A stretch of DNA of 16,446 nt from Candidatus Hydrogenedentota bacterium (GCA_029974275.1 JARKSN010000092.1:1-16446), one strand, 5' to 3'. Numbered from the stretch's first letter, positions 1 to 16,446 are shown. Translations and numbers: made by a program. Notes: generated from the sequence alone by a model not told the origin.

Positions 1-61
1 AAGCCAACACCACCAAGAAAGCCAGCATCAAAGGAAAACGAAAAATCGCCGGATGGGACAA
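1..61 (-). CDS. Possible 5' end of an exported or membrane protein (partial, runs off window start)
   Basis: Minus strand reads TTG at 61-59 then MSHPAIFRFPLMLAFLVVLA, a signal-peptide-like hydrophobic stretch. SD-like GAGGT and AGGAGG lie upstream. Only 20 codons are visible. Confidence 0.35.
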   Translation of the reverse strand, partial: MSHPAIFRFPLMLAFLVVLA

Positions 62-185
62 CGACTACCTCAAGGAAATCCTCCTGGCTATGTGACTTTT
101 AATGCGATAGCCCTGCCCCATCGCGTTCCGGCCGCGTCGGCAAAAATGTTTCTCGAAAGCCCCCCTGCCGTCGCGTCAAGGCGTC

Positions 186-1447: not shown

Positions 1448-2878
1448 TTACGCGCCCAATTCCTTGCGCAAAATCTCGTTCACCAACTGTGGATTGCCGC
1501 GGCCTTTGGTGGCCTTCATCATTTGTCCGACGAGGAACCCCATCGCCTGTTTCTTGCCCGCTTCGAAATCGGCGACAGGGCCTGGGTTCGCGGCGATGAC
1601 GTGCCGCGCGATCTCGGCGAGGGCGTCGGGGTCGCTGATCTGCACGTTGCCGCTCGCTTCGACCAAGGCCTTCGCGCCTTTGCCGGTCGAGAACATTTCC
1701 GGCAGCATGTCCTTCGCGATTTTGCCGCTGATCGTGCCGTTTTCGATGAGACCGATCATCTCCGCGAGCGACTCCGGCGTGACCGGGCAGTCGCTGATCT
1801 CGTGTTTTGCCTCGACCAACATCGCTTGCAGATCGACCATGATCCAGTTCGCGGCGGGTTTCGCCGTGGCGCCAGCCTTCACGGTCGCCTCGTAGTAATC
1901 GGCCATCGCGCGGGTCGACGTCAGCACGCGCGCATCGTAGTCGCTGAGTCCGTACTGCTCGACGAACCGCGCGCAACGCGCCTGCGGCAATTCGGGCAAG
2001 GACTCGCGAATGCGCGTCTCCCATGCATCGTCCACCGACAAAGGCACGAGGTCCGGCTCGGGGAAATAACGATAGTCGTGGGCCGATTCCTTCGTGCGCT
2101 GCGCGAAGGTCACGCCACGGTCGGCGTCCCACCCACGGGTCTCTTGCACGATGGTGCCGCCTTCGGACAGTACCTGCTTTTGGCGTGCAATTTCGAAGTC
2201 GATGGCCTTCTGTGTGCCGCTGAACGAGGCTACGTTCTTGACCTCGGTCTTCACGCCAAATTTTTCCTGACCGACGGGCCGAATGCTGATGTTGGCTTCG
2301 GCGCGCAGCGAGCCTTCTTCCATGTTGCAGTCGCTGACGCCCAGGTATTGCAGAATCTGCTTCAGCGCCGTCAGGTACGCGAAGGCTTCCTCCGCGCTAC
2401 GAATGTCCGGCTCGGTGACGATTTCCAACAACGGCACGCCGCAGCGGTTGAAGTCCACGCCGCTGTCGCCGCCGCCGATGGTGTGCGTGTTGCGCGCGGT
2501 ATCTTCTTCGAGGTGCGCGCGCGTGATGCCGATGCGTTTGGTCGTTCCGTTCACGGGAATTTCGAGCGACCCCTCGTAACACAGCGGCAAGTCGTACTGG
2601 CTGATCTGGTAGTTCTTCGCAAGGTCGGGATAGAAATAATTCTTGCGGTCCATCTTCGACCAGCGCGATATCTTGCAGTTCAGCGCGAGGCCCGCCGCGA
2701 TGGACATGTCGACGGCAGCTTTGTTAATGACCGGCAGCACGCCCGGCATGCCCAGGCACACGGGGCAGACATTGGTGTTCGACGGGGCGTGGAAGTTCGT
2801 GCTGCACCCACAGAAGACCTTCGACTTCGTGGCCAGCTCCACGTGCACTTCCATCCCGATGACTGCTTCGTAATCCAT
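1448..2878 (-). CDS. gatB: Asp-tRNA(Asn)/Glu-tRNA(Gln) amidotransferase subunit B
   Basis: VIGMEVHVEL, CPVCLGMPG, RKNYFYPDL, HLEED, GVPLLEIVTEPD, YRYFPEPDL and a C-terminal YqeY-like GQMMKATKGRGNP. Confidence 0.98.
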   Translation of the reverse strand: MDYEAVIGMEVHVELATKSKVFCGCSTNFHAPSNTNVCPVCLGMPGVLPVINKAAVDMSIAAGLALNCKISRWSKMDRKNYFYPDLAKNYQISQYDLPLCYEGSLEIPVNGTTKRIGITRAHLEEDTARNTHTIGGGDSGVDFNRCGVPLLEIVTEPDIRSAEEAFAYLTALKQILQYLGVSDCNMEEGSLRAEANISIRPVGQEKFGVKTEVKNVASFSGTQKAIDFEIARQKQVLSEGGTIVQETRGWDADRGVTFAQRTKESAHDYRYFPEPDLVPLSVDDAWETRIRESLPELPQARCARFVEQYGLSDYDARVLTSTRAMADYYEATVKAGATAKPAANWIMVDLQAMLVEAKHEISDCPVTPESLAEMIGLIENGTISGKIAKDMLPEMFSTGKGAKALVEASGNVQISDPDALAEIARHVIAANPGPVADFEAGKKQAMGFLVGQMMKATKGRGNPQLVNEILRKELGA

Positions 2879-2898
2879 TGCGCATCCCTAATCGATTT

Positions 2899-3080
2899 AA
2901 GATTCACCACAAAGGCACAAAGGACACAGAGAAAGCACAGAGAAGACACTACAGAGAAGTTAAACCACAGATACACACAGATGGACACGGATAAGAGCCA
3001 TAAAACCCTTCGCGACTCTGCGTCTTTGCGTTAAATCCTTCTCTTTTCTTTGTGTCTTTGTTCCTTTGTGTTAAAATCTT
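2899..3080. repeat. Nested imperfect inverted-repeat element of short periodic units in the gatA-gatB junction
   Basis: Outer arms aagattcaccacaaaggcacaaaggacacagagaaa (from 2899) and tttctttgtgtctttgttcctttgtgttaaaatctt (to 3080) are imperfect complements. agagaag (2953-2959) pairs with cttctct (3038-3044). Inner modules lie at 2963-2992 (10-nt period) and 3008-3035 (8-nt period). Confidence 0.85.
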
Positions 3081-3093
3081 CTCTTCTTCTCTC

Positions 3094-4563
3094 TCACGCC
3101 ACCGGCGCGGCGCCCATCTCGAAACCGCGGTGCTTCTCATACGTGTAGGCCGTGCGCAGCAGCGTTTCCTCGTCGAACGGCTTCCCGAGCAACTGCAATC
3201 CCGCCGGCAGTTTCGCGTCCGTCAATCCGCAGGGGACTGACATGCCCGGCATGCCCGCGAGGTTCAACGAGATCGTGTAGATGTCGCTCAGGTACATCTC
3301 CAACGGGTCGTCCGTCTTCGCGCCGACCTCGAAGGCCGCCGTCGGCGAAGTCGGCCCGGCGATCACGTCGCACTGCTCGAAGGCCTGTTGGTAATCGCGA
3401 CGGATTAGCGTGCGCACCTTCTGGGCCTTCAAATAATACGCATCGTAATAGCCGCTCGACAGCACGTACGTGCCCAGCATGATGCGGCGTTTCACCTCCG
3501 GCCCGAAGCCGTCGGTCTTGGACAGGTGATAGAGGTCGTGCGTGTTCGCCGCCTGCGGCGAACGGTAGCCGTAGCGGACGCCGTCAAAGCGTGCGAGGTT
3601 CGCGCTGGCCTCGGCGGTGCAGATGATGTAGTAGACCGCGATGGCGTACTTCGAATGCGGCAGCGAGACCTCGACGATCTTCGCCCCGCGCGATTCGAGC
3701 ACCTTCACCGCCGCCTCGATCTTCTCGCGCATCTCGGCGTTGAGTGCGTCCGTGAAGAACTCCTTCGGCAACCCGACGCGCAGCCCGGTGACATCGTCGC
3801 GCAGGGCCTTCGTGAAGTCCGGCACGGCGATGGCCGCCGAGGTCGAATCGTGCCGGTCATGGCCGCAGATCGCGTTGAGCACGAGGGCCATGTCCTCGGC
3901 GTCTTTCGAGAATGGGCCGATCTGATCGAGCGACGACGCAAAGGCCACCAGCCCGAACCGCGATACGCGCCCATACGTCGGCTTCATGCCGAGACACCCG
4001 CACAACGCCGCCGGCTGCCGAATCGAGCCGCCCGTGTCGCTGCCGAGCGAATAGGCGCATTCGTCCGCCGCGACCGCCGCCGCCGAGCCGCCGCTCGAAC
4101 CGCCCGGCACACACTTCAGGTTCCACGGGTTGCGCGTGACTTGCACCGAGGAGTTCTCCGTGCTCGAGCCCATCGCGAACTCGTCCATGTTCACCTTGCC
4201 CAACGGCACCGCGCCCGCCGAAAACAAACGCTTCATCACCGTCGCGTCGAAGGGGCTGCGATAGCCCTTGAGGATTTGCGAACAACACGTCGTCGTGCCC
4301 TGTGTGGTGCAGATAACGTCTTTAATCGCCATCGGCACGCCCGCAAGCGGCCCGCGATCCTCACCGCGCTTCAACGCCGCGTCGGCATCATCGGCCTTCG
4401 TCAAAGCGTGCTCGCGCCAGACGTCCGTATAGGCTTTCACTTTCTCGTCCACCGCGTCGATGCGCGCCAAAAACGATTCCGTGATTTCCCGCGAAGTCGT
4501 TTCCCCCGCGCGCAAGGCATCGCGCAATTCGTGCGCGGTCAATCGATACCAATCCCGGCCCAT
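3094..4563 (-). CDS. gatA: Asp-tRNA(Asn)/Glu-tRNA(Gln) amidotransferase subunit A
   Basis: Amidase signature: AIKD, MDEFAMGSSTENS, PGGSSGGSAAAVAA, SLGSDTGGSIRQPA, FGPEVKRRIMLGTYVLSSGYYDAYY. Lies between gatC and gatB. Confidence 0.98.
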   Translation of the reverse strand: MGRDWYRLTAHELRDALRAGETTSREITESFLARIDAVDEKVKAYTDVWREHALTKADDADAALKRGEDRGPLAGVPMAIKDVICTTQGTTTCCSQILKGYRSPFDATVMKRLFSAGAVPLGKVNMDEFAMGSSTENSSVQVTRNPWNLKCVPGGSSGGSAAAVAADECAYSLGSDTGGSIRQPAALCGCLGMKPTYGRVSRFGLVAFASSLDQIGPFSKDAEDMALVLNAICGHDRHDSTSAAIAVPDFTKALRDDVTGLRVGLPKEFFTDALNAEMREKIEAAVKVLESRGAKIVEVSLPHSKYAIAVYYIICTAEASANLARFDGVRYGYRSPQAANTHDLYHLSKTDGFGPEVKRRIMLGTYVLSSGYYDAYYLKAQKVRTLIRRDYQQAFEQCDVIAGPTSPTAAFEVGAKTDDPLEMYLSDIYTISLNLAGMPGMSVPCGLTDAKLPAGLQLLGKPFDEETLLRTAYTYEKHRGFEMGAAPVA

Positions 4564-4566
4564 GCG

Positions 4567-4863
4567 TTACTCCATCTCCAGGATGCGCGGCACGATGAAA
4601 TACTCGCCATCCGTCTTCGGCGCATTGGCCAGCGCCTCTTCCCGCGTCAACGACGGCTCCACGACATCGTCCCGGTAGACATTGACCATTTCGAGCACAT
4701 GCATCGTGGGTTCAATGCCGGTCGTGTCCAGCGCATTCAACTGGTCCATATACGATAGAATCTCGCTCATCTCGCCCACGAGCCGATCCTTGGCTTCCTC
4801 GCTCAACGTGAGCTGGGCCAACCGCGCGACATACTCCACATCGGACTTTGTAATACTCGCCAT
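4567..4863 (-). CDS. gatC: Asp-tRNA(Asn)/Glu-tRNA(Gln) amidotransferase subunit C
   Basis: ITKSDVEYVARLAQL...REEALANAPKTDGEYFIVPRIL. ATG at 4863 has AAAGGA upstream and is preferred over the longer 4887 start. Confidence 0.96.
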   Translation of the reverse strand: MASITKSDVEYVARLAQLTLSEEAKDRLVGEMSEILSYMDQLNALDTTGIEPTMHVLEMVNVYRDDVVEPSLTREEALANAPKTDGEYFIVPRILEME

Positions 4864-4906
4864 GACGGTCCTTTCGCCAAAAAACACAGGGATATATGCA
4901 GCACGG

Positions 4907-4936
4907 ATGGTATCACACGGTCCCCGGGTTTGTCCA
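4907..4936 (-). promoter_or_regulatory. Putative sigma70-type promoter for gatCAB-rsfS-kinase
   Basis: Minus strand TGGACA (4936-4931), 18 nt, TACCAT (4912-4907), with an extended -10 TG. Confidence 0.4.
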
Positions 4937-4963
4937 AGAATCGAATGATTGAGCCGTCTCTCG

Positions 4964-6973
4964 TCACGGTTCGATCACGAGGACGTTGTGGATCGCCAGG
5001 CCGCCCATGCGCGCCGTCAGAACGCCGTCTTTCCAGCTCCACTCGAGGCCTTCCGGGTCCGGCGCGAGGTAACAACGGGCGGGGGCCTTGTCCATCGGCA
5101 CGCGAACAACGAACGGGCCCGCGTTCGGCACGTTTTCGACCATGTGCCGGTTCGGCGCGAGATAACCGGCCGCGGATCGGTTTACAAACTGAATCAACAG
5201 ACGGCCGTCCTTTTGTCGCGCGGACATCTCGATCCACCAGGGGCCTTCGTGACGCATGACTCTGGGCGCTTCGAGGGCATGAACCATGTCCCCGATACAG
5301 GAACGAAGGCGCGGGTAGTGGGATGCTCCGTATATGCGGAACAGAGGACCGTGCACCGCGACGACCACGCCTTTGCCTGCGGCGTTGATCGTTGCGGCGG
5401 GAAAGCCGATCTTGTCGCGTTCGGGTTCTTGCTGGCGCAACAGGGGCGCCAACTCGCGTCCGGTGGCGCAGGCGACGCGCTGCCACTCACCGCTCACGAT
5501 GACCGCGCCGCCGTTCGCCGGGATGTAGTTTTCGCCGGTGATTTTTCCGTCGGCGAGCGTCACGCCCAACCAATCGCCGAACTCTTGCGCGGCATGGTCG
5601 CCGCTGACGATGAGGCGCCCCCCATTTTCGACGTACGCCCGCAATGCCTCGCGAACCGTCTCGGGCAATCCCTTTTGCTCCGGGACCACGACGATCGGGT
5701 ACTGGGCGATGCGTTCGAGCAGCATGTCCTCATTGAGAATGTCGACCGAATAGCCGTTCTCGAGCAGGCCATGCACGGCGCCTTCCATGGGAATGTTCGC
5801 GCCGCCGGGGTTGAAGAGCGGGTCGCAGTGCGCGTAGTAGAAACTGCGGCTATGCAGCACGGCGACCTGGGGAACCGTCTCGGACTGAAAGCAATAGTCC
5901 TTGCGTTGACGACAGAACTGCGCCACTTGGGCAAGCACGTCCTGATGCCACGCGGTCAGCCGTCCGGTGCGTTGCGGCACGTTGTAGACAAACACGCCGC
6001 CGCCTTGCGCAAGGGCCACGGCCACTTCCTGGCACAAGTGCGGCACTGGCTTGAGGGTCCACCCCAAATGGAACGCCGGCCAGTTGGGATCCGTCTTGAG
6101 GAAGGCCCACGCCATCAGGTTCCACGGTTTGCCGTGAGCCGAGAAAACGCGCGACTCGGCGCAGGCGCGTTCGGAACCGAACGACGGATCGAAATCGCCG
6201 CTAAGATAGTCCACCGGGACCGTGATTGAATCGGGCTGGCGCACGCTGTACATCCAGTTGCTGCACACGGCGACATCCGGTTTGGCCTTATGCACCGCCT
6301 CCGCGTAGGCGCGCACGTGTTCGACAAACAGGTCGCGCTGGAAGGACAGCCATTCCGCCCAATGCGGGTCGCCCGCCTTCTTGGGAATGTCCGTGATGCC
6401 CGTGCGTTTGGCAAATTCCCGTTTGCAGCCCTCCGTCCACGATGGCGGGCTGGCCCAGCATTCGCCGTCAACCCACACGCCATCGAGATCATACTCGGTA
6501 AGGACCTCGATGAGTTGCGGGATCATGAGGTCGCGCGTGTAGGCGCTCATTCGGTCGGTGGCGTTGGGGTTTGGGGCGCCTTCCGCGTCGACCATGGCCC
6601 ACTCGGGGTGCACCTCGATCGCGCGCGAATCCCATACGCCGGAGTAATGGATGGACAACGGAATGCCCATGTCCTTCGTGACCTTGCGATACACCTTGAG
6701 GGAGTCGTTCACGATGCCCGGCGACGGCGATCCGACCTTTGTCGGGTAGCCTGTGTAGCCTGGATGCCCTTTGCAGTCGTATTGGACATAATCGGGCTTC
6801 ACCTTTTCGAGCTGCTCGCGAATGTGCTCGTACGTCACTTCGCGCCCGAGTTCGGTGTCGCCCGCGGTGGGATGCAGATCGTAATGAAGCCCAAAAAACG
6901 CGTTGTCCGACCATTTCACCGCGCGTTTCTCATCCGCCGCCAAGGTCAATGCCATAATCGCCGCCCAGATCAT
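4964..6973 (-). CDS. Putative secreted glycoside hydrolase, GHL6/GH151 alpha-L-fucosidase-like, with GH42-type trimerisation-like domain
   Basis: [29 protein letters not shown] and LDGVWVDG suggest a TIM barrel. [25 protein letters not shown] suggests a GATase-like domain. Short hydrophobic N-terminus. ATG 6973 overlaps the macrodomain stop (ATGA); 6994 is an alternative start. Confidence 0.75.
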
Positions 6974-7518
6974 CGTTTTCCTTGCCTCCCGCATTCCAAT
7001 TCATGAAGCGCCATAGAGAACGCATTGTATGTTTCCGCGCCGAAAAGCACAAAACGCACTCGTTCGATCTCCAGGCGCTTCTCCAAAAACTGCGCAACGG
7101 CGGTCACGGCGATTCGGGCGGCGTCGGGAATAGGGTACCCATACACGCCGCAACTGATCGCGGGAAACGCAATCGTCTTGAGGCCGCGTTCGGCGGCGAT
7201 CTCGAGGCTGCGCCGGTAGCACGAAGCCAGCAGTTCCGGCTCGCCGTGGCGCCCGTTGCGATAGATAGGGCCAACGGCGTGAATGACGTAGCGCGCCGGC
7301 AGATTTCCGCCGCCGGTGATCTTCGCGTCCCCCGTAGTGCACCCGCCGAGCGTGCGGCACTCCGCCAGAATGGCCGGGCCGCCTGCCCTGTGGATGGCTC
7401 CGTCCACGCCGCCGCCGCCCAAAAGACTCGAGTTGGCCGCATTGACGATGGCGTCGACTTCTTGTGTGGTGATATTCCCTTGGATGGTCTCTATGCGCGA
7501 CAAGACATGGGCATCCAC
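6970..7518 (-). CDS. ymdB: Macrodomain protein, O-acetyl-ADP-ribose deacetylase / ADP-ribosylhydrolase (YmdB/MacroD-like)
   Basis: [33 protein letters not shown] and [17 protein letters not shown] start with GGAGGA upstream. Confidence 0.93.
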
Positions 7519-7543
7519 CCCGTTCCTCCTTTGGCTTTTGGGA

Positions 7544-7939
7544 TCAACAACGAGGCGGGGTCAGGCGTTTCAGCCCTACGCTGTCTTCAAGCTCCTGCTC
7601 CACTTCCGCCACGTTCGGGGCATTGTACACAACCATGTTGTGCAGATGCTCGAGGTGTTCCGTCGCGATGCTCGTGAATTCAACGGCAAGCCCGCCGTCA
7701 TCGACACGCGCCACGACGCCCATCACAGCCAAGGGAGAAAAGGCTTCGTCGTCATTCAAAAGCAAAGCGACCTCGCATTCGGTCCCCTTGGGCAGGCGCG
7801 ACTCGGAAACGACATACACGCCGTTCATGCTGAGGTTTTCCACGCTTCCATGAACGATGACGCCCTGGCGCGTTTTCAACCTTGCCCGCACATGGACCCG
7901 GATGCGCGTGAATCCGCGAACGTTCGTTCCTCTGTCCAT
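7544..7939 (-). CDS. Stand-alone PilZ-domain (c-di-GMP-binding) protein
   Basis: RxxxR (RGFTR) and D/NxSxxG (NLSMNG) motifs, plus [18 protein letters not shown] 7939 with GAGGG upstream is preferred over 7978. Confidence 0.85.
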
Positions 7940-8167
7940 CGCATCCCTCGCTTTCACCCGCTCTCGCGCGCACCACACTCCTCCCTCTCCAGTCTACGCT
8001 CCTTCTCAAAAAACGGCAACAAGCGCCACGGTCAGGACGATCGCACGCAATAAGCGAGCGATGGCGCATTTTTTAGCCCCGGTCTCTGTGCCGCGCTACA
8101 AAGAGGAGAACTCTGAGGGGAATGGAATCGCCTGTGCCTTCGAGAAGAGTCCGCCCAACTCCAGTTT

Positions 8168-8196
8168 TTGACGCGCACCCCCTAAAACTATATATT
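8168..8196 (+). promoter_or_regulatory. Putative sigma70 promoter for the lipoprotein pair
   Basis: TTGACG (8168-8173), 17 nt, TATATT (8191-8196). Confidence 0.6.
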
Positions 8197-8270
8197 GCGT
8201 ACACGCGCCCCCTTGGTGTACTCTATCTTGTAGCTGAAGACGGTGAAACGCAAAAACAGAGGGCAGGGTC

Positions 8271-8732
8271 ATGCGTCGAATAGCGAGCAGGGCGGTGATG
8301 GCAGGGATGTTGGCGATGGCGGCGCTTTGGCTGTGCGGATGCGCCCACAGCCGGGGATTGCATGCGACCAAGGAACGCGAGATGACCTTGGGGCTCGTGC
8401 AGAGATACGTCCACGAAGGCATGTCGGCGGTCGAAGTGATCGAAGCCCTCGGCTCGCCCAACATGGTGCGGCGCGATTCCGAAGGACGCGAGTCCTGGGT
8501 CTACGACAAGGTCGCCACCGAAACCTCGCATTCGGAAAGCGATACGGGCGTGAGCGGGCAGGTGAGCGGGACCGGTGTGGCGCAGAATTCGCTTTTGCTG
8601 GGCGCCATCGGCGGTCGCCATAACCGCAGTTCCGGGGCCACCGCCACCACCCAAAAAACCCTTACCGTGATCATCAAATTCGACAAAAACGGCCAGGTCG
8701 AAACGTATTCCTACCATACCAGCACGTTCTGA
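8271..8732 (+). CDS. Lipoprotein with SmpA/OmlA (BamE)-like domain
   Basis: Lipobox LCGC. GMSAVEVIEALGSPNMV...ESWVYDK and LTVIIKFDKNGQV match the SmpA/OmlA pattern, with a Gly/Ser-rich insert. Confidence 0.75.
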   Translation: MRRIASRAVMAGMLAMAALWLCGCAHSRGLHATKEREMTLGLVQRYVHEGMSAVEVIEALGSPNMVRRDSEGRESWVYDKVATETSHSESDTGVSGQVSGTGVAQNSLLLGAIGGRHNRSSGATATTQKTLTVIIKFDKNGQVETYSYHTSTF

Positions 8733-8750
8733 CGCGCGAAAGGGGTCGCA

Positions 8751-9254
8751 ATGAATACACGCGCCGCATGGGGCATCCTTGCCGTTCTGATCCTCACGCT
8801 CGGCGGATGCGCCACCGAGAAAAAACCGCTTCGAGCGCCCTCACAACTCGATATTCGAGGCATTCAATCACGGGAATACGACACGCACGACGTCGCCCTG
8901 GTGATGAAAGCGGTCCTGAACGTGCTTCAGGACATGGGGTACATCGTGAGCACGGCCGACGAAAAACTCGGCCTGCTCACCGCAAGCAAGTGGACCGACA
9001 TCGAGCACTCCAAGCAGACCATCAAGGAAGCCAAAAAACAGATGACCCCGCTTTCCAAAAGCCTCGTCATGGAATGCACCGCCAATATCAGCGCCTTGGG
9101 CAAACAATGCCGCGTCCGCGTAAACTTTCAACAGCGCACGCTCGATGCCACGGGCGCAACCCTCAGCGCAAGCCCCATCGTCGACGCACGGTTCTACCAA
9201 ACCTTTTTCAGTCAAGTCGATAAAGGCATATATCTGCAACGGGAGGGGATATAG
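8751..9254 (+). CDS. Lipoprotein of unknown function
   Basis: Lipobox LGGC after a hydrophobic signal. AAGGGG SD, 18 nt after the previous gene. Confidence 0.75.
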   Translation: MNTRAAWGILAVLILTLGGCATEKKPLRAPSQLDIRGIQSREYDTHDVALVMKAVLNVLQDMGYIVSTADEKLGLLTASKWTDIEHSKQTIKEAKKQMTPLSKSLVMECTANISALGKQCRVRVNFQQRTLDATGATLSASPIVDARFYQTFFSQVDKGIYLQREGI

Positions 9255-9384
9255 CCCCCCCCTGCCGGGATGCGCTGGAGACCAGGACCCCATGCGTCCC
9301 CTTCGGTCAATCGCATTTCCTCACCGGCCCGCATCGGGAGCGCTTGGGCTGAAAGGTCAGGGTCGGGTTGTAGGCGATTTTATG

Positions 9385-9413
9385 TTGAGTTATATAATCA
9401 TATATGCAATAAT
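9385..9413 (+). promoter_or_regulatory. Putative promoter with palindromic operator upstream of the sulfite reductase
   Basis: AT-rich island with TTGAGT, 17 nt, AATAAT. TATAAT also occurs at 9393-9398. Imperfect palindrome TATATAATCATATA at 9391-9404. Confidence 0.5.
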
Positions 9414-9469
9414 TGTCGGCATTTCAGGGCAACCTGTGTGTGCAGCAGTAGGCAGTAGGAGCATGAGAT

Positions 9470-11263
9470 ATGGCCACGGATGAAACCCAAGAAGACGCGC
9501 CGGAAACGGGAACCGCTGGAAAGCTCACGGAGGTGGAACTGCTGAAAGAGGCGAGTCGCGGCCTATACGGCGCGTTGGCGGAGGAACTGGCGAGTCCGTC
9601 CGACCATTTTTCGGAAGCGACGGCGCAGCTTATGAAGTTCCACGGCTCGTACCAGCAGGACAACCGGGACGTGCGCCCGGCCCGCAAAAAACAGGGGCTC
9701 GACCGTGATTACAAGATGATGGTGCGCACGCGGTTTCCGGGCGGCGGCATTTCAGCGCAACAGTATTTGTTGTGCGACGCGCTGGCGGCGACATACGGCC
9801 AGAACGACATGCGCATCACATCGCGTCAGACGTTCCAGTTCCATGGCGTCGTGAAGGGAAAACTGCGGCCGCTCATTCATGATCTAAATCACTTGGGCCG
9901 CATTTCCACGATCGCTTCCTGCGGCGACGTCGTGCGCAACGTGACCGCCCCGCCGGTGGCGGACATTGATCCCCGGTATGCGCGGATCGGCATGGACCTT
10001 ATCGCGTTGGCTCGCGACATCAGCGATCGGTTCAGCCCCAAGACGGCGGCCTATTTCGATCTCTGGCTTGACGACGAGAAGGTGACGGTGAACGCGGACG
10101 GAACGGTCGTGTATGAGAAGGATTTGCCTGCGGAGCCGGTCGACGAGCCGCTGTACGGGAAGACTTATTTGCCGCGCAAGTTCAAAATCGGCATTGCGAC
10201 GGACTTCGACAACTCCATCGACGTCTACACGAACGATCTGGGCGTTCTGGCGATCATGAACCCGGACGGGACGGTTGCGGGCTTCAACATTCTCGTAGGG
10301 GGAGGGCTTGGGCATTCGCACAACCGGCCGGCGACGTATCCGCGTCTGGCCACGCCGCTGGCGTTTGTGCAGCCGGAAGAGGTCGTGCCGCTGATCGAGG
10401 CCGTCATCCAGGTCCAGCGCGACCACGGCGATCGCACGAACCGAAAACATGCGCGGATGAAGTACCTCATCGACGATTGGGGCCTGGAGCGTTTTCGGTC
10501 GAAAGCGTTCGCCTATGCGGGCCGGGAATGCCCCGCGCCGCGCGACGTCACGCCTTCGGCGCAGCCCGACTACCTCGGCTGGCACAAGCAGAGCCAACCG
10601 GGGCTCAACTACGTGGGCGTCTGGGTCGAGAATGGCCGCGTCCGGGATTTCGAGGACGGCATCCGGTTCAAGTCGGGTCTCCGCGCGATCATCGAACGCC
10701 ACCGGCCGGACGTGCGCCTGACGCCGCATCACAACCTCGTTCTCGCCAACATTCGCGACGAAGACGTGGACAGCGTCCAAGCGCTGCTCGACGAATATGC
10801 CCTGCCAACCGACAAGGGCGTTTCGACGTTGCGCCGTTTGGAGATGGCCTGTCCGGCGCTGCCGTTGTGTCCGTTGGCGACATCGGAAGCCGAGCGCGTA
10901 TTTCCGTCCGTGATCAAGGCCCTCGAAGAGGCGGGACATGGCGACGCGGACGTCATCATCCGCATGAGCGGTTGCCCGAACAGTTGTTCGAGGCCGGCAA
11001 CGGCGGAAATCGGAATCGTGGGCAAGGGAACGGACCAGTACATTCTCCAAGTCGGCGGCGATCACTGCGGCGCGCGCCTTGCCGCGACGCTGCTGCCGGT
11101 GGTCAAAACCGTCGACCTTGCGCCTGCGGCGTCGCGTCTGCTGCATGGGTGGAAGGCCGAACGCTTCGAGGGCGAGTCCTTTGGCGATTGGGCCGGGCGC
11201 ATGGGCGCCGACAATTTGCGCGCGCGCGTGATCGAATTCGAGAAGGCGAAGCGGCAGGCCTGA
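9470..11263 (+). CDS. cysI: Assimilatory sulfite reductase, siroheme/[4Fe-4S] hemoprotein (CysI/Sir family)
   Basis: MKFHGSYQQDNRD, RITSRQTFQFHG, CGDVVRN, YLPRKFKIG, HARMKYLI, and cluster ligands CPALPLC and SGCPNSC. AGGAG SD; adjacent to cysH. Confidence 0.93.
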   Translation: MATDETQEDAPETGTAGKLTEVELLKEASRGLYGALAEELASPSDHFSEATAQLMKFHGSYQQDNRDVRPARKKQGLDRDYKMMVRTRFPGGGISAQQYLLCDALAATYGQNDMRITSRQTFQFHGVVKGKLRPLIHDLNHLGRISTIASCGDVVRNVTAPPVADIDPRYARIGMDLIALARDISDRFSPKTAAYFDLWLDDEKVTVNADGTVVYEKDLPAEPVDEPLYGKTYLPRKFKIGIATDFDNSIDVYTNDLGVLAIMNPDGTVAGFNILVGGGLGHSHNRPATYPRLATPLAFVQPEEVVPLIEAVIQVQRDHGDRTNRKHARMKYLIDDWGLERFRSKAFAYAGRECPAPRDVTPSAQPDYLGWHKQSQPGLNYVGVWVENGRVRDFEDGIRFKSGLRAIIERHRPDVRLTPHHNLVLANIRDEDVDSVQALLDEYALPTDKGVSTLRRLEMACPALPLCPLATSEAERVFPSVIKALEEAGHGDADVIIRMSGCPNSCSRPATAEIGIVGKGTDQYILQVGGDHCGARLAATLLPVVKTVDLAPAASRLLHGWKAERFEGESFGDWAGRMGADNLRARVIEFEKAKRQA

Positions 11264-11300
11264 TCGCGCCGCATCGATTCCATGGCATGGAGACCCGACG

Positions 11301-12035
11301 ATGATTCTGAGTGAATCAACGGACCTGTTGGACGGATTGAACGCGCTGGATCCGGAAGCGTTGTTGCAGTGGGCCGTCGCGACGCACGGCGCCCGAGCCG
11401 CGCTCCTGACGAGTTTTCAGAACACCGGATGCGTGATGGTCGACATGGCGAAACGCGCCGCGCCGGGACTGCGCGTGGCGACGGTGGACACCCTGCGCCT
11501 GCACCCCGAAACGTACGCCTTGATGGAGCGCATCGAGCAGCGGTACGGCATTCGCATCGAGCGTTTCAAGCCTGAACCCGAATGTCTCGAACGGATGATC
11601 GCCCATCACGGGGAATTCTTGTTCTTCGACAGCCAGGAGAAGCAGGAACTCTGCTGCCACATTCGCAAGGTCGAGCCGAACGAGCGGGCGCTCGATACGG
11701 TGGACGTGTGGATCACGGGGCTGCGCCGCGACCAGTCCGACGCCCGGAAATACGCGCCCAAGGCGTCCCGCGTCGATCACAAAGGCCGCTCTATCGTGAA
11801 ACTTGCGCCGCTTATCGACTGGAGCGAAGACCAGGTTCGCGCCTATTTGGCCGAAAACGACGCGCCCTACAACCCCCTCTACGATCAAGGCTACGCCAGC
11901 ATCGGCTGCGTGATTTGCTCGACGCCGATTAAACCCTGGGAGCATAAGCGCGCGGGCCGCTGGCGCTGGTTCAACCACATGGGCGACGATCATAAAAAGG
12001 AATGCGGCATCCACACGCAAGGCAGCGGCATATAG
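11301..12035 (+). CDS. cysH: APS/PAPS reductase, Fe-S type (probably APS-specific)
   Basis: TSFQ, VDTLRLHPETY, CCHIRKVEP, WITGLRRDQS, YNPLYDQGYASIGCVICS, RAGRW and C-terminal ECGIH. The CC plus CxxC pattern marks 4Fe-4S enzymes. Confidence 0.94.
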   Translation: MILSESTDLLDGLNALDPEALLQWAVATHGARAALLTSFQNTGCVMVDMAKRAAPGLRVATVDTLRLHPETYALMERIEQRYGIRIERFKPEPECLERMIAHHGEFLFFDSQEKQELCCHIRKVEPNERALDTVDVWITGLRRDQSDARKYAPKASRVDHKGRSIVKLAPLIDWSEDQVRAYLAENDAPYNPLYDQGYASIGCVICSTPIKPWEHKRAGRWRWFNHMGDDHKKECGIHTQGSGI

Positions 12036-12061
12036 ACGAACCGAAGCAGGCGCCGGCGCAA

Positions 12062-12484
12062 TCAGGCATCCCGGGAAATAGAAGGCCGCCCCAAAAAACG
12101 TGCAAGAAACGCGGCCACAACCAGGAAAGCCCCAAACCCCAAGGCGAGGTTGCCGCCGACATGAAGCCCCACGGCCGTCGCGCCATACCGTATCGCGACC
12201 CCGGCATGCGAACAGGCGCCGCCGATGAAACACAAAAACAGCCCCGTCATTCCCGCACTAAAAAGCCGAGGCCGCTTTGCCAATCGCGGCGCATCCCAAA
12301 CTCGCTGGAGAGCCAACATCGACGCCAAAGACTCTTCGTCCGATTCCGCCGCCGCATGAAGCCATTCGATCCGCATGCGATGGCGTATCCAGATAGTCAC
12401 GATCTCCCGCAACCCCAGGAAGACCAGGGTCCCCGCGCTCACCGTGGCGACAAGGCCGGAAAATAGAATCAGCAGCGTATTCAT
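12062..12484 (-). CDS. Small membrane protein of unknown function (~3 TM segments)
   Basis: Hydrophobic stretches LLILFSGLVATVSAGTLVFLGL, LFSAGMTGLFLCFIGGA and LALGFGAFLVVAAFLA. Fills the gap between cysH and the helicase promoter. Start at 12484 is inferred. Confidence 0.65.
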   Translation of the reverse strand: MNTLLILFSGLVATVSAGTLVFLGLREIVTIWIRHRMRIEWLHAAAESDEESLASMLALQRVWDAPRLAKRPRLFSAGMTGLFLCFIGGACSHAGVAIRYGATAVGLHVGGNLALGFGAFLVVAAFLARFLGRPSISRDA

Positions 12485-12537
12485 GGCATGATTTGGACCG
12501 GGGCGACCGGAAAACGGTTTCGCGTTATTGCGCGCAC

Positions 12538-12566
12538 TTGATCGACGCAATACCTGATGTTATATT
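12538..12566 (+). promoter_or_regulatory. Putative sigma70 promoter for the helicase-exonuclease operon
   Basis: TTGATC (12538-12543), 17 nt, TATATT (12561-12566) with an extended -10 TG. AGGA SD before ATG 12597. Confidence 0.6.
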
Positions 12567-12596
12567 CAGTCGCAGGACCCCACGCAGGATGTCACC

Positions 12597-14882
12597 ATGA
12601 ACGTCGCACAGACCATCGACCGCCTTCGGCAAGACGATCGCTTCATGCGGAACCTCACCCAATGGCGCTCCATCCCCGCGCGTGAGGCCCGCTATGCCGG
12701 ATTCCCGGAGGGACTTCACCCGCGACTGATCGAGGGCCTCAAGGCGCGAGGCATCACCGACCTGTACACGCACCAGCGCGCGGCCATCGAGGCCGTGCTC
12801 GCGGGCGAACACATCTGCGTCGTGACCCCAACGGCGTCGGGCAAGACGCTGTGCTACAACGCCCCGGTGCTGAATCGCCTCCTATCGGAGCCCGACGCGC
12901 GCGCCCTCTACCTGTTCCCTACCAAGGCCCTGTCGCAAGACCAGGTCAAGGAATTGCAGTCAACTATCGAGGAACTCGAAGTCAAAATCGGAACGTACAC
13001 GTTCGATGGCGACACGCCCGGCTCCGCGCGCAAAGCGATTCGCAACGCGGGGCATATCGTCGTCACGAATCCCGACATGCTGCACACGGGCATCCTGCCG
13101 CATCACACGATCTGGATGAAGCTCTTCGAGAACCTGCGCTACATCGTCGTCGACGAACTCCACCACTATCGAGGCGTGTTCGGCAGTCACTTGGCCAATG
13201 TCTTGCGACGGCTCAAACGCATCTGCGCGTTCTACGGGTCAGACCCGCAATTTATTTGTTGCAGCGCCACCATCGCCAATCCCAAGGAAATGGCCGAGCG
13301 CATCGTCGAAAAGCCCATTCATCTCATTGACGATAACGGCGCGCCCGCGGGCGAGCGACATTTCCTCTTCTACAACCCGCCCGTCGTCAACGCAGAACTC
13401 GGCATCCGCAGGTCGTCGGTGCATGTAGCAACGGATATCGCCACCCAATTGCTCTCGAAGGACATTCAATCCATCGTGTTTACGCGCAGCCGACTGCGCG
13501 TCGAGATCATGACCACGTATCTGAAGGATGCCGTGGCGCGGCTCGGCAAAGACACCGATCTCGTGCGCGGATATCGCGGCGGCTATCTGCCGACCGAACG
13601 CCGCGCCATCGAAAAGGGCCTGCGCGACGGCGAGATCATGGCGGTGGTCAGCACGAACGCGCTCGAACTCGGCATCGACATTGGATCGCTCGACGCCTGC
13701 ATCATGGTGGGTTACTCGGGCAGCGTGGCCAGCACGTGGCAACAGGCCGGGCGCGCGGGACGCCGCTCGAGCACGTCGCTGGTCATTCTCGTCGCGTCGA
13801 GCGCGCCGCTTGATCAATACATCATCTGCCACCCCGAGTACTTCTTCGAGTTGTCGCCGGAAAATGCAACCGTCGACACAAAAAACTTGTTTATTGTGTC
13901 AAGCCATGTCAAGTGCGCGGCCTTCGAGTTTCCCTTCAAAGACGGCGAGGCGTTTGGGTTGGACGCTGTGTCGACCCAAGGCGTTCTCGAATACCTCGGC
14001 GAGCAGCGCATCCTGCGGCACGTGCGCGACAGATGGCATTGGAACGCAGACGCGTATCCCGCGCAGGACATCAGCCTGCGCACCGCCGCGCCCGGAAATG
14101 TGGTGATTCTCGACACCACGCAAAATGGCCGCGTCATCGGCGAGATCGATTATTTCTCGGCGCCGACCGAGGTCTATCAGAACGCCATCTATCTGCATCA
14201 GAGCGCGCAGTACACCATCGAGAAGCTCGACCTCGAAGACCGCAAGGCCTACGCGCGTCCCGTCGAAACCGATTACTACACCGACGCGCAGGTGAAGGTC
14301 GACTTGCGCGTGCTCGACGCGTTCCGCTCGGAAACCGTCGGCCAGGCGTCGCGTAACCACGGCGAAGTCAGCGTGACGTGGCTTCCGTCGATCTATAAGA
14401 AAATCAAATTCGGCACACACGAAAATGTGGGATATGGCGATATCCATCTTCCCGAAATCAACATGCACACGACCTCTTACTGGATCGCGTTTTCCGAGGA
14501 CCTGTCCGAGCGCACAGACCTGCCTCAAAGTCGTCTCGGCGCGGCGCTCAATGGCTTGGCCAATACTCTACGGCAAGTCGCCCCCGTGCAGGTGATGTGC
14601 GACCCGACCGATATTCGCGCCCTGGGCCTGTTGCGATCGCCCTTCTCCGAGCAGCCGACGATCTTTCTGTACGAGACCTATCCCGGCGGCGTCGGGTTCA
14701 GCGAGAAGCTCTTCACGACACACGACCGTCTGCTCGAAGCCGCGATATCGCTCATCAGCCGTTGCGGCTGCAAAGAAGGCTGCCCCAGCTGCGTCGGCCC
14801 CGCTCTGGAAATCGGCGGCGAACACGGCAAGAGCGGCGCGCTGATCCTGGCTAAAATGGCGTTGGATTACCGGGAACGATGA
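12597..14882 (+). CDS. SF2 DExH helicase with C-terminal DUF1998 Zn-binding domain (MrfA/YprA/SftH/Hrq1 family)
   Basis: LYTHQ, TPTASGKT, FPTKALSQDQ, TNPDMLH, DELH, SAT, YRGG, TNALELGIDIG, QQAGRAGR, YPGGVGFS and CGCKEGCPSC. Confidence 0.93.
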   Translation: MNVAQTIDRLRQDDRFMRNLTQWRSIPAREARYAGFPEGLHPRLIEGLKARGITDLYTHQRAAIEAVLAGEHICVVTPTASGKTLCYNAPVLNRLLSEPDARALYLFPTKALSQDQVKELQSTIEELEVKIGTYTFDGDTPGSARKAIRNAGHIVVTNPDMLHTGILPHHTIWMKLFENLRYIVVDELHHYRGVFGSHLANVLRRLKRICAFYGSDPQFICCSATIANPKEMAERIVEKPIHLIDDNGAPAGERHFLFYNPPVVNAELGIRRSSVHVATDIATQLLSKDIQSIVFTRSRLRVEIMTTYLKDAVARLGKDTDLVRGYRGGYLPTERRAIEKGLRDGEIMAVVSTNALELGIDIGSLDACIMVGYSGSVASTWQQAGRAGRRSSTSLVILVASSAPLDQYIICHPEYFFELSPENATVDTKNLFIVSSHVKCAAFEFPFKDGEAFGLDAVSTQGVLEYLGEQRILRHVRDRWHWNADAYPAQDISLRTAAPGNVVILDTTQNGRVIGEIDYFSAPTEVYQNAIYLHQSAQYTIEKLDLEDRKAYARPVETDYYTDAQVKVDLRVLDAFRSETVGQASRNHGEVSVTWLPSIYKKIKFGTHENVGYGDIHLPEINMHTTSYWIAFSEDLSERTDLPQSRLGAALNGLANTLRQVAPVQVMCDPTDIRALGLLRSPFSEQPTIFLYETYPGGVGFSEKLFTTHDRLLEAAISLISRCGCKEGCPSCVGPALEIGGEHGKSGALILAKMALDYRER

Positions 14883-14897
14883 AGAGAGAAGAACGTG

Positions 14898-15090
14898 ACA
14901 CAAAGCCGCAAAGGCACAAAAACACAAAGCCTTTCGGAAGAGCAACCACAGATGCACACAGATGGACACAGATAAAGAAAATCTGCTCTCTTTTCATCCT
15001 CACTTCATCTGTGTCCATCTGTGTGCATCTGTGGTTCAATTCTTCTCTTCCCTTTGTGCGCCCTCCGTGTCCTTTGCGCCTTTGTGGCGA
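14898..15090. repeat. Nested inverted-repeat element with a perfect 30-bp inner stem, between helicase and exonuclease
   Basis: aaccacagatgcacacagatggacacagat (14944-14973) is the exact reverse complement of 15007-15036, with a 33-nt loop. ggaagag (14936-14942) pairs with ctcttcc (15045-15051). Imperfect outer arms lie at 14905-14929 and 15063-15088. Confidence 0.93.
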
Positions 15091-15101
15091 GTCTTCCTCC
15101 C

Positions 15102-16446
15102 ATGTCTGACATCAAGGACAAATTGAAAGAGCTGCTCGTCACACGCGGCGTGATGGCCGGGTCCGATTTGCAGAAGAAGATTGCGGCCTTGCAGGAAGAG
15201 CGTGCGGCGGGCGCATACGAGATCGAGCGCGTCGTGCCGGGTGAAGTTGTCGGCGAGGGCGATGATCGCTTCTATCTCGTCCGCACGGACTATCCCCTCG
15301 ACACGCCACGCGGGAAGGTCACATTGGGCGACGCCTTGCATGCCCATGCCGACCACATCGCGTTCTCGGCATGCGACAGCGACCTCGCCGATTTCGACGC
15401 GACCACGGCCGTCTTTGTCGACGCGGAGACCTCCGGCCTTGCGGGTGGCACGGGGACTGTCGCATTTCTCATGGGCTTTGGTTATTTCACGGAGAACGTC
15501 TTCCGCCTGGAGCAATGTTTCATGCGCGACTACGACGAAGAAGAACCGATGCTTCGTTACATCGACACGCTGCTCCAGCGCTTCGATACGGTCGTCAGCT
15601 ACAACGGCAAGAGCTTCGACGTTCCCCTGTTGCGCACGCGCATGATCGCCAATCGCATCCCGTCGCGTCTCGACACGCTGATGCAGTTTGACCTGTTGCA
15701 CGCCGCACGCCGTTTTTGGAAAGTGCGTCTGCGCGATTGCTGTCTCGGCAACATCGAGCGCGCCGTGCTCGGCGTCGAACGCCACGGCGACGTGTCCGGC
15801 GCGGAAATACCGGAACTCTACTTCGACTACCTCCGCACGCGCGACGCCCGCAAACTCGACCGGGTGTTCTACCATCACGCCTGCGATATCCTCTCCCTTG
15901 CAGCGCTGATGGCGTGGCTGTCGCAATGCCTCGCGCATCCCGAAGGGGAAGGTTTTGAGCATGCCGAGGACCGCGTCTCGCTTGTAAAACTTCATTTCCG
16001 ACAAAAGCGCTACGACGAGGCCATCGCCGTCGGCATGCGGGTGCTGGAGGAAGAACCCGATCCCGCCGTCCGCCGCGCGTGTCTGGAACTCATGGCGGCT
16101 GCGTACAAGAAGAACCAAGATTGGCAAGGAATGGCCAACGCGTGGGAATTGCTCCTGAACGATTTCCCCGAAGACCTGCCCGCACGCCTGGAGCTGGCGA
16201 AGTATCACGAGCACCGGAGCCTAAACTTGGTCGAGGCCACGCGTCTTTGTGCGGAAACGATCCAGTTTCTCGAAGTGCGCGAGGCCCTCGAACGAATAGT
16301 CGATGCCGATCGGATGTACCTGATCGCTTTTTCTAAACGCCTCCACCGTCTCCGGAGCAAGCTGTCGCGTGCACCAGGACTTAGCGACTGTCCCGCCCGC
16401 GCTGGAATTGGACTTCTCCGATGGCAAGAATGTGTAGACCATCATT
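15102..16446 (+). CDS. RNase H-fold (DEDD-type) exonuclease with C-terminal TPR-like helices, MrfB/YprB family (3' partial)
   Basis: Translated by hand; absent from the ORF track because no stop occurs before the window end. Reads MSDIKDKLKELL...VFVDAETSGLAGGTGTVAFLMGFG...SYNGKSFDVPLL...FDLLHAARRFWK...LGNIERAVLGVERHGDVSGAEIPELYFDYL...YHHACDILSL...LELAKYHEHR. Follows a DUF1998 helicase, as in mrfAB. Confidence 0.9.
   Translation, partial: MSDIKDKLKELLVTRGVMAGSDLQKKIAALQEERAAGAYEIERVVPGEVVGEGDDRFYLVRTDYPLDTPRGKVTLGDALHAHADHIAFSACDSDLADFDATTAVFVDAETSGLAGGTGTVAFLMGFGYFTENVFRLEQCFMRDYDEEEPMLRYIDTLLQRFDTVVSYNGKSFDVPLLRTRMIANRIPSRLDTLMQFDLLHAARRFWKVRLRDCCLGNIERAVLGVERHGDVSGAEIPELYFDYLRTRDARKLDRVFYHHACDILSLAALMAWLSQCLAHPEGEGFEHAEDRVSLVKLHFRQKRYDEAIAVGMRVLEEEPDPAVRRACLELMAAAYKKNQDWQGMANAWELLLNDFPEDLPARLELAKYHEHRSLNLVEATRLCAETIQFLEVREALERIVDADRMYLIAFSKRLHRLRSKLSRAPGLSDCPARAGIGLLRWQECVDHH

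Follow-up and report, generated by a model that had tools for sequence, protein, structure and literature searches.

We analysed a 16,446-bp stretch of DNA from a Candidatus Hydrogenedentota bacterium, called the window below. It is the entire contig C127 of a 4.38-Mb assembly in 342 contigs (G000), and its GC content, 60.5%, is that of the genome. The window holds two gene-less palindromic elements, A between gatA and gatB, and B between a helicase and an exonuclease gene. A and B are likely to be versions, gene-less and non-autonomous, of a small selfish cassette of the same type as the intervening sequences (IVSs) of rRNA genes. All three types of arm from which they are assembled (L, M and R) also bracket genes of GxxExxY nucleases elsewhere in the window genome. 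The full-length cassette would consist of a GA run, a terminus (TTCAC, TTTAAC or TTGAAC), three to four phased units, the GxxExxY gene and an inverted array.

The arms are built of 7-nt cores spaced 8-10 nt. The L type has the terminus GATTCAC and four CACAAAG/CACAGAG/CACGGAG units, the M type a TTGAAC or TTAAAC terminus and three CACAGAT units at 10-nt spacing, and the R type a TTTAAC terminus and three or four CGCAGAG/CGCAAAG or ACAAAG units. Both elements have a lower GC content than window and genome, and neither contains a credible open reading frame (ORF). Their parts are the following.

Element A, 2879..3093, minus strand: gene-less composite of 215 nt, R2-R1-loop-M'-L' on the sense strand, 42% GC.
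2901..2942, plus strand: L module of A, terminus GATTCAC and four phased CACAAAG/CACAGAG units.
2965..2992, plus strand: M module of A, three CACAGAT units with a period of 10 nt.
3008..3038, minus strand: R1 module of A, terminus TTTAAC and three CGCAAAG/CGCAGAG/CGCGAAG units.
3048..3078, minus strand: R2 module of A, terminus TTTTAAC and three ACAAAG-type units, with L' as its pairing partner.
3079..3093, minus strand: GA-rich run of A, immediately past the gatA stop codon (3094-3096).
Element B, 14883..15101, plus strand: gene-less nested hairpin of 219 nt, outer R-like/L' arms and inner M/M' arms, 48% GC.
14883-14893, plus strand: GA run of B, after the helicase TGA (14880-14882).
14897..14929, plus strand: outer purine-rich arm of B, CACAAAG/CGCAAAG units.
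14944..14977, plus strand: M arm of B.
14978..15002, plus strand: 25-nt loop of B, the position of the gene in full-length cassettes.
15003..15036, plus strand: M' arm of B, 97% complementary to the M arm.
15052..15093, plus strand: L' arm of B, terminus GTGGCGAGTC, 8 nt ahead of ATG 15102.

Read on the minus strand, A begins with two purine-rich arrays (3078-3048 and 3038-3008) and continues through a short loop into two pyrimidine-rich ones (2992-2965 and 2942-2908) and the terminus 2907-2901. Its L module thus appears on the sense strand as the pyrimidine-rich L' arm, 22 nt before the gatB ATG (2878-2876). The order in B is R-like, M, loop, M', L'. The phased-unit pattern described below detects arrays at 2908-2942, 2966-2992 and 3008-3030 in A and at 14947-14973, 15007-15033 and 15052-15086 in B.

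A repeat search aligned 2899-2942 with 15052-15095 (44 nt, 82% complementary), 2953-2992 with 15007-15046 (40 nt, 85%) and, within B, 14944-14977 with 15003-15036 (34 nt, 97%). A 28-nt word of the M module is found at 2965-2992 with two mismatches and at 14946-14973 and 15007-15034 with none, and a 23-nt word of the L module lies at 2905-2927 and, with two mismatches, on the minus strand at 15067-15089; neither word was matched in any of 200 shuffles. An earlier description of the window made from its sequence alone (the sequence-only reading) had aligned A and B over these two modules, and the alignment is borne out, with the same module order relative to transcription. The common layout it had proposed, running along transcription from stop codon through GA run, two purine-rich arms, loop and two pyrimidine-rich arms to the next start codon, can be read in both elements. 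One of its details held in part: a 30-mer match of 28/30 applies to the direct copy at 14946-14975, the reverse-complement copy reaching 27/30.

As sense RNA, A folds at -66.4 kcal/mol (z -3.75) and B at -106.6 kcal/mol (z -14.5), the stem of B beginning 1 nt past the stop codon and finishing 2 nt before the ATG. Rfam, run over the window at a permissive threshold, gave no family at its gathering score and no rRNA; seven sub-threshold matches to microRNA precursors fell on the B hairpin (28-44 bits, with cut-offs of 90-100). Intrinsic terminator or promoter cassettes were considered and discarded, sigma-70 and terminator scans having returned no site in 2600-3400 and 14600-15400. The unit cores are kept on each arm and the spacers are not kept complementary between arms, a pattern that, as far as sequence can tell, agrees less well with a mere need for a stem than with units being recognised by their sequence.

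Next, we searched the whole genome for runs of at least three C[AG]C[AG][AG]A[GT] units at 7-13-nt spacing. The window genome contains 89 such arrays in 53 groups, and the reversed motif, used as control, yields none. A and B belong to a genome-wide family, as the sequence-only reading had expected. The family is intergenic: only 133 of its 2668 bases fall into called genes (95% lie outside), compared with 86% coding genome-wide. With genes placed by our own ORF caller, the neighbours are co-directional in 32 of the 38 groups where both were called; among adjacent gene pairs in general the share is 67% (p 0.024). We counted 36 L' termini, 35 of them with a called neighbour. In 27 of these 35 the gene that follows points away from the terminus (p 0.002), its start codon lying mostly 10-35 nt downstream; the other 8 have the opposite orientation. 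Placement and orientation with respect to operons are thus not random. The suggestion that the family targets intra-operon junctions survives as a junction bias, in which targeting cannot be separated from survival of harmless insertions.

The full architecture of A is present at at least seven loci of the genome. Identity among these A-type copies, A included, is 69-77% and nowhere exceeds 77% over 166-211 nt, while their L' terminal module is nearly invariant. One pair of copies at 99% (C163/C194) was discounted as a sign of recent copying, both members lying at contig ends, probably as an assembly overlap. As anticipated from the sequence, no transposase is found in either element, nor between the arms in any of the 53 groups, and no target duplication is obvious. 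TTAA, seen at both ends of many copies and tried as such a duplication, turned out to belong to the conserved terminus AAGA(A)TT(T/C)A(A)C. Copies that are R/L' hybrids fold 9-31 kcal/mol better on the sense strand than on the antisense strand. A tandem array at C193:10330-11200 contains at least three copies of a composite unit of about 240 nt, in which R'/R arms are combined with a palindrome of GTAG type and with a third hairpin.

The connection of these arms with nuclease genes was apparent within the same genome. It has five TIGR04256 genes (GxxExxY, PF13366, PD-(D/E)xK), of which four are bracketed by inverted arrays on inspection (three by the automatic rule); the fifth lies 86 nt from a contig edge. 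The four bracketed genes are listed here.

C191:43856-44251: GxxExxY gene between L and L', CACGGAG units.
C141:3906-4310: GxxExxY gene between M and M', CACAGAT units.
C22 and C163: two GxxExxY genes between R-type arms, CGCAGAG units.

The same arrangement is found far beyond this genome. From 597 matched contig stretches, 564 of which encode relatives, the best 80 were kept, and an inner-flank inverted score of at least 40 was reached at 52 of the 78 loci with both flanks, compared with 0 of 72 controls taken from flanks 280 nt further out. Pooling these best stretches with 29 loci from relatives and the five own genes gave 114 loci from about 11 phyla, 82 of which show three or more phased units in a reach of 220 nt. 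The sequence-only reading had named an association between CACAGA-type repeats and GxxExxY genes, and both the own genes and the pooled set confirm it. A typical cassette starts with TTCAC and three CACAGAG units and ends, behind the gene, with the inverted copy; the gene always occupies the loop between the arms. With respect to both flanking open frames, it is co-oriented at 39 of 71 loci, opposite at 8 and mixed at 24. One full-length cassette comes from a cultured gut bacterium:

NZ_OY725952.1 (Bacteroides finegoldii, locus L231), 640-1118: full-length cassette between radA and the gene of a FAD-dependent protein.

It starts 1 nt past the radA stop codon, ends 6 nt before the next ATG and is annotated solely as 'GxxExxY protein'. 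Its downstream terminus, GTGGTGAA, stands 6 nt ahead of that ATG, and no separate Shine-Dalgarno sequence is seen.

Arm words follow the phylogeny of the nuclease. A maximum-likelihood tree of the 114 proteins, built quickly from 123 columns and leaving many forks unresolved, requires 26 changes of the unit label; 300 shuffles required 46 on average and never fewer than 41. All six rows with units ending in AT, including the M-type gene of the window genome, fall into one clade of 12 rows (SH-aLRT 95), where none of the 76 rows with units ending in AG is found. The CACGGAG clade spans Planctomycetota, Verrucomicrobiota and Acidobacteriota, and the CGCAGAG clade four phyla. The tree thus shows arms and nuclease gene to be inherited and transferred together, at the level of sequence; such sharing of labels among kin says nothing on recognition.

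The window genome was compared with forty others from its family or order. Array counts range from 0 to 167 in these 41 genomes, 39 of which have at least one, with 0-2 for the reversed control; GxxExxY genes number 0 to 41 and are present in 38. The totals are 1150 array-pattern matches and 197 genes. A 6.1-Mb relative (G003) has 41 GxxExxY matches and only 21 arrays of the CRCRRAG pattern, presumably a large expansion using other unit words.

The protein itself measures about 125 aa in the cassettes. No variation was seen, in sets of 5 and of 43 sequences, at D74, E/D84 and K86 of the catalytic PD...(D/E)xK signature or at the GxxExxY residues. The only resemblances of a confident AlphaFold (AF2) model (pLDDT 95.7) are to generic folds of restriction endonucleases, Cas4 and Hjc, with a best E of 0.003 in Foldseek and a best Z of 7.4 in VIA-align. 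Foldseek against the PDB returned nothing at E <=0.001, and no PDB sequence relative was found at E up to 1. GxxExxY/PDDEXK_3 appears in the family listing of PMC3424549 as a large family with function unassigned.

Comparison with relatives shows, on sequence evidence, that A and B were inserted in this lineage. The genes on either side of each element were said to be normally close neighbours, and so they are. Both gatA and gatB were found at 25 loci of the 40 relatives (fetched loci), with spacers of at most 45 nt, typically 8-13 nt, at 20 of them; the closest relative (GatB 86% identical) has 28 nt. Five loci hold unrelated fillers of 67-397 nt, and at four more gatB was alone, gatA not lying within reach. 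Helicase and exonuclease genes were both found at 16 loci, seven of them with gaps of 2-15 nt, and the exonuclease gene alone at 13, with the helicase out of reach. At four of the 16 the gap is over-estimated, the exonuclease start lying inside it, and one of these four gaps begins with a phased, purine-rich array whose unit word is a different one; three other gaps hold unrelated palindromes. Since these junctions are tight and unoccupied in relatives, A and B must be regarded as lineage-specific. Of the alleles that the sequence-only reading had proposed to look for, the absent one is thus found at the window junctions and the gene-filled one is not, within 1.5 kb in the 40 relatives.

One helicase/exonuclease junction (L033, G010:C10) holds a 199-nt hairpin of 30% GC, built of ACAGGATTTAC/ACAAGAT-type units. 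A similar word occurs in the loop of an M/M' hairpin of the window genome (C70:1901-2130), and words of this type resemble the arm words around genes of four-helix-bundle proteins.

A third junction, between genes of a MoxR-type ATPase and a DUF58 protein, flanks the C191 cassette and was compared at 30 loci. Here absent, solo-arm, nuclease-filled and four-helix-bundle-filled alleles are all seen. Seventeen spacers measure 0-51 nt, three hold fillers of 72-149 nt, and two loci contain an unrelated small ORF. One of the short spacers is a solo array: the 32 nt of locus L208 (G022:C84) consist almost wholly of three GTGCGAA/GTGCGGA units, possibly the footprint of a lost cassette. Seven loci have a PF13366 gene, six of them scoring 146, 143, 90, 71, 42 and 23 bits and the seventh being the own copy (149 bits, TIGR04256), with different arm words or none. 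With PDDEXK_3 scores declining from about 146 to 23 bits, the series looks either like an old resident in successive stages of decay or like a site of repeated reinsertion. One further locus has a PF05635 gene (23S rRNA intervening-sequence protein, 119.5 bits), so that L207 (G002:C81) with its 23S_rRNA_IVP four-helix-bundle occupant stands beside L201, L216 and L227 with PDDEXK_3 occupants. The arm words are CACGGAG, CACAAAG, CACAGAG and GAATTAG, according to cargo, and TTCGGGT for the four-helix-bundle gene. Each cargo has its own arms at this shared junction; the arms therefore arrive with the cargo. Judged from these alleles, junctions of this kind are shown to gain, lose and swap such cassettes.

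The nearest known relatives of these cassettes are ORF-bearing IVSs of 23S rRNA. The helix-45 IVS of Coxiella burnetii is described in portions of PMC4990558 as a selfish element of 428 nt in the 23S rRNA, where AGAAGA and three tandem GACAGAT heptamers precede an ORF for an S23p four-helix-bundle protein and inverted repeats at either terminus make up a long stem cut by RNase III; the same portions call the origin of IVSs unclear. IVSs as presented there and in portions of PMC11270868 share with A and B their nature as selfish inserts at a transcribed but non-coding site, together with a GA run, tandem heptamers and a long inverted stem, and share with the hairpin cassettes in general the existence of short forms without ORF and a sporadic distribution. 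In contrast to IVSs, A and B are found in mRNA junctions between protein genes and not in an rRNA helix; they have no ORF, and their cognate full-length forms encode a PD-(D/E)xK nuclease, not a four-helix bundle. Four-helix-bundle genes are present in 36 of the 41 genomes. The co-occurrence with them that had been proposed was detected in relatives: an inner-flank inverted score of at least 40 is reached at 14 of 21 loci, compared with 0 of 18 controls, and 13 loci have tandem units, the unit words of the arms varying by locus. None of 20 four-helix-bundle loci of relatives lies inside an rRNA gene. The single four-helix-bundle gene of the window genome has no such array flanks.

Other known systems share some of these traits. 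Miniature inverted-repeat elements (MITEs) likewise measure 100-300 bp, are non-coding, have terminal inverted repeats, occur in many copies and may be nested. The termini of A and B differ from theirs in being tandem arrays common to a nuclease cassette, with no duplication beyond the conserved terminus, and no insertion sequence whose ends carry the L, M or R termini was seen. Integron attC cassettes are small promoterless co-oriented genes with hairpin flanks, and alternative cargos may occupy one site, as here. They differ in that each gene here has two inverted arms travelling with the cargo, and in that the present cassettes are dispersed, not arrayed beside an integrase.

REP, BIME and REPIN elements, as portrayed in parts of PMC3116915, PMC3333891, PMC3733652 and PMC8266576, resemble the present family in combining many gene-less intergenic palindromes, tolerated between operon genes, with few repeat-flanked genes. 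Their partner is a Y1 transposase, whereas here it is a PD-(D/E)xK nuclease, and the arms here comprise 3-5 phased heptamer cores. The window genome has four PF01797 (Y1_Tnp) matches, two of which (C141:7201-7539 and C268:122362-122601) lie 0.4-0.7 kb from arrays and belong to these genes:

C141:7105-7584, minus strand: Y1_Tnp (RAYT/IS200-type) gene.
C268:122263-122769, plus strand: Y1_Tnp (RAYT/IS200-type) gene.

The Y1 genes are flanked by other palindromes, of the CCCCGAAGGGGAT type and the GTAGCGCCCGG...CCGGGCGCTAC type, not by heptamer arrays. The palindromes of the Y1 genes (CCCCGAAGGGGAT type and a GTAG-tagged GCGCCCGG...CCGGGCGC type) form a second, separate repeat system, and copies of the GTAG-tagged palindrome are nested in some heptamer elements (C59, C193). 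The label 'REP-like', used in the sequence-only reading, therefore fits as far as it denotes a multi-copy, genome-wide, intergenic family, and fails for the link with RAYT/TnpA-like genes.

It is very improbable that A and B are repeats of REP/BIME type that owe their movement to a RAYT (Y1 HUH) transposase, or miniature forms descended from some conventional insertion sequence. Multi-copy intergenic palindromes, two Y1 genes close to arrays and the insertion-sequence copies that probably bound the window contig would agree with such an origin. Against this, the flanks of the Y1 genes are of another kind, no group has a transposase between its arms, and element A has no DNA match in a collection of 72,556 plasmid records. 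The REP palindrome, according to the section on it in PMC3733652, is a single one of 20-40 bp with a GTAG or CGTC tag; the arms here are 25-45-nt arrays of phased units lacking both tags. The REP/RAYT interpretation was rejected for the differing flanks of the Y1 genes. We also find it improbable, if somewhat less so, that the hairpins are pre-existing attC-like recombination sites capturing small genes, with A and B as empty sites. The constant position of genes in the loop, the numerical excess of gene-less arrays over genes and the MoxR/DUF58 junction, holding a GxxExxY gene at 7 of 30 loci and a four-helix-bundle gene at another, speak for landing pads. However, an arm word goes with its nuclease clade across phyla, every cargo at MoxR/DUF58 has its own arms, and what relatives have at the window junctions is a short bare spacer and not an empty hairpin. 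The proposal of empty cargo sites in the sequence-only reading thus gives way to gene-less derivatives as the likelier interpretation, no filled allele of the window junctions having been found in 40 relatives.

A third possibility, unlikely in our view, is that A and B are now intercistronic structures kept by the host, serving as RNase III sites, mRNA stabilisers, devices for stop-start coupling or a pyrimidine-rich leader. Several results could be read this way: the L' terminus facing a downstream start codon, the near-invariance of its module among copies of 69-77% identity, the better sense-strand fold of R/L' hybrids, the precise fit of the B stem between stop codon and ATG, and the prevalence of GxxExxY genes co-oriented with both flanks. 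On the other side, relatives keep both junctions at 2-45 nt without any element, the arm spacers are not kept complementary, and 8 of 35 termini have the other orientation. The orientation and G.U patterns may moreover stem from one founder architecture, the copies not being independent. In 70 independent gene-carrying cassettes no G.U bias is present: G.U-compatible arm mismatches number 53 on the sense and 65 on the antisense strand, with 127 transversions, which are as common.

If A and B are gene-less derivatives of the nuclease cassette, as we consider likely, they would have arisen through gene loss together with nesting or recombination of arms. B resembles an M/M' hairpin seated in the loop of an R/L' hairpin, and A may be a degenerate R2-R1-M'-L' composite. 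Such inserts would be tolerated inside operons because they bring in no terminator, lie between the stop codon and the ribosome-binding region, and could bring stop and start together by their fold. The stem may be cut by RNase III, by analogy with the 23S rRNA IVS of the same build; this idea, or that of a stem simply joining stop and start, draws on the analogy, the orientation bias and the co-orientation of the genes, and a direct pairing-bias test lent it no support. Among enzymes that could move or maintain the cassette, the nuclease, acting on the phased units, would be the prime candidate. In a broader and tentative version, to which we give somewhat less than even chances, a new class of prokaryotic mobile elements would have GxxExxY proteins as its enzymes: a minimal PD-(D/E)xK nuclease would recognise the phased heptamer arrays at either end of its own cassette and move or copy it into intergenic spacers, along with gene-less hairpins such as A and B, which are far more numerous. 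IVSs of 23S rRNA, with their four-helix-bundle ORFs, would then be a sister branch of this cassette design.

Several observations weigh against the explanation by gene-less cassette copies. For the RNA-level part, these are the absence of a sense-strand G.U bias just mentioned, the fold of A, only modestly better than shuffles, and the gene-less two-arm copies, whose sense strand folds better in 12 of 17 cases (p 0.14). With regard to mobility, A-type composites give no sign of recent copying in the window genome, and no target-site duplication can be defined beyond the conserved terminus. No GxxExxY gene was met at either window junction in 60 loci of the 40 relatives, within 1.5 kb. The generic nuclease fold is, at the level of a model, uninformative on substrate. 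Detectable arrays are absent at 32 of the 114 GxxExxY loci; in one relative, four GxxExxY genes occur without any array of this pattern, and two relatives have 6-7 arrays with no GxxExxY gene found. Array and gene counts of the 41 genomes correlate only moderately (Spearman rho 0.56), and kin are not independent. Gene positions underlying the array placement come from a crude ORF caller.

The genes around A and B were assigned by profile matches.

1448..2878, minus strand: gatB, downstream of element A (NCBIfam GatB, 672 bits).
3094..4563, minus strand: gatA, upstream of element A (NCBIfam GatA, 630 bits).
4567-4887, minus strand: gatC (GatC confirmed by profile match).
12597..14882, plus strand: DEAH helicase with MrfA Zn-binding domain, upstream of element B (PF00270, PF09369 (MZB)).
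15102..16445, plus strand: gene of an RNase_H_2-fold (MrfB-like) exonuclease, downstream of element B (PF13482, 129 bits).

The helicase matches TIGR03817 with 667 bits, which is under the cut-off of that model, and the exonuclease gene runs off the contig end. Its start is placed at ATG 15102, where alignments with relatives begin at residue 1; the first in-frame start of the ORF, GTG 15021, falls inside element B.

Both ends of the window (1-116 and 16389-16446) consist of repeated sequence. Nine other contigs have the left 115-119 nt, 99-100% identical, at their ends or no more than about 30 nt away, and a tenth, C121, shares the last 97 nt of this repeat at its own very start. The left repeat closes an ORF resembling that of a transposase (...IAGWDNDYLKEILLAM*). 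Copies of the right 58-63 nt are found on three further contigs, at the contig ends or up to about 130 nt away. Probably, insertion-sequence copies bound the window contig and broke the assembly here. Of the 72,556 plasmid records, only 7 contain GxxExxY.

In the main texts of PMC articles and preprints, we found no account of repeats around GxxExxY, PDDEXK_3 or PF13366 genes and no occurrence of array 15-mers, and texts citing the family accessions nowhere describe such arms outside rRNA. This widespread hairpin cassette is thus apparently undescribed in the literature. It also matters for genome annotation: such inserts are unlabelled now, can mislead start-codon calls (automatic callers may extend the exonuclease gene into element B up to the first start at 15021) and may break assemblies. 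The cassette family explains low-GC hairpins that split otherwise tight operons such as gatCAB, and ties these operon hairpins to rRNA intervening sequences. Through its tie to a defined DNA anatomy the GxxExxY family gains a first testable substrate, and a cultured carrier, Bacteroides finegoldii with its cassette at the radA junction, makes bench tests practical. If GxxExxY proteins do turn out to be the enzymes of a new class of mobile elements, one explanation would serve for two large protein families of unassigned function and for the old puzzle of the heptamer repeats.

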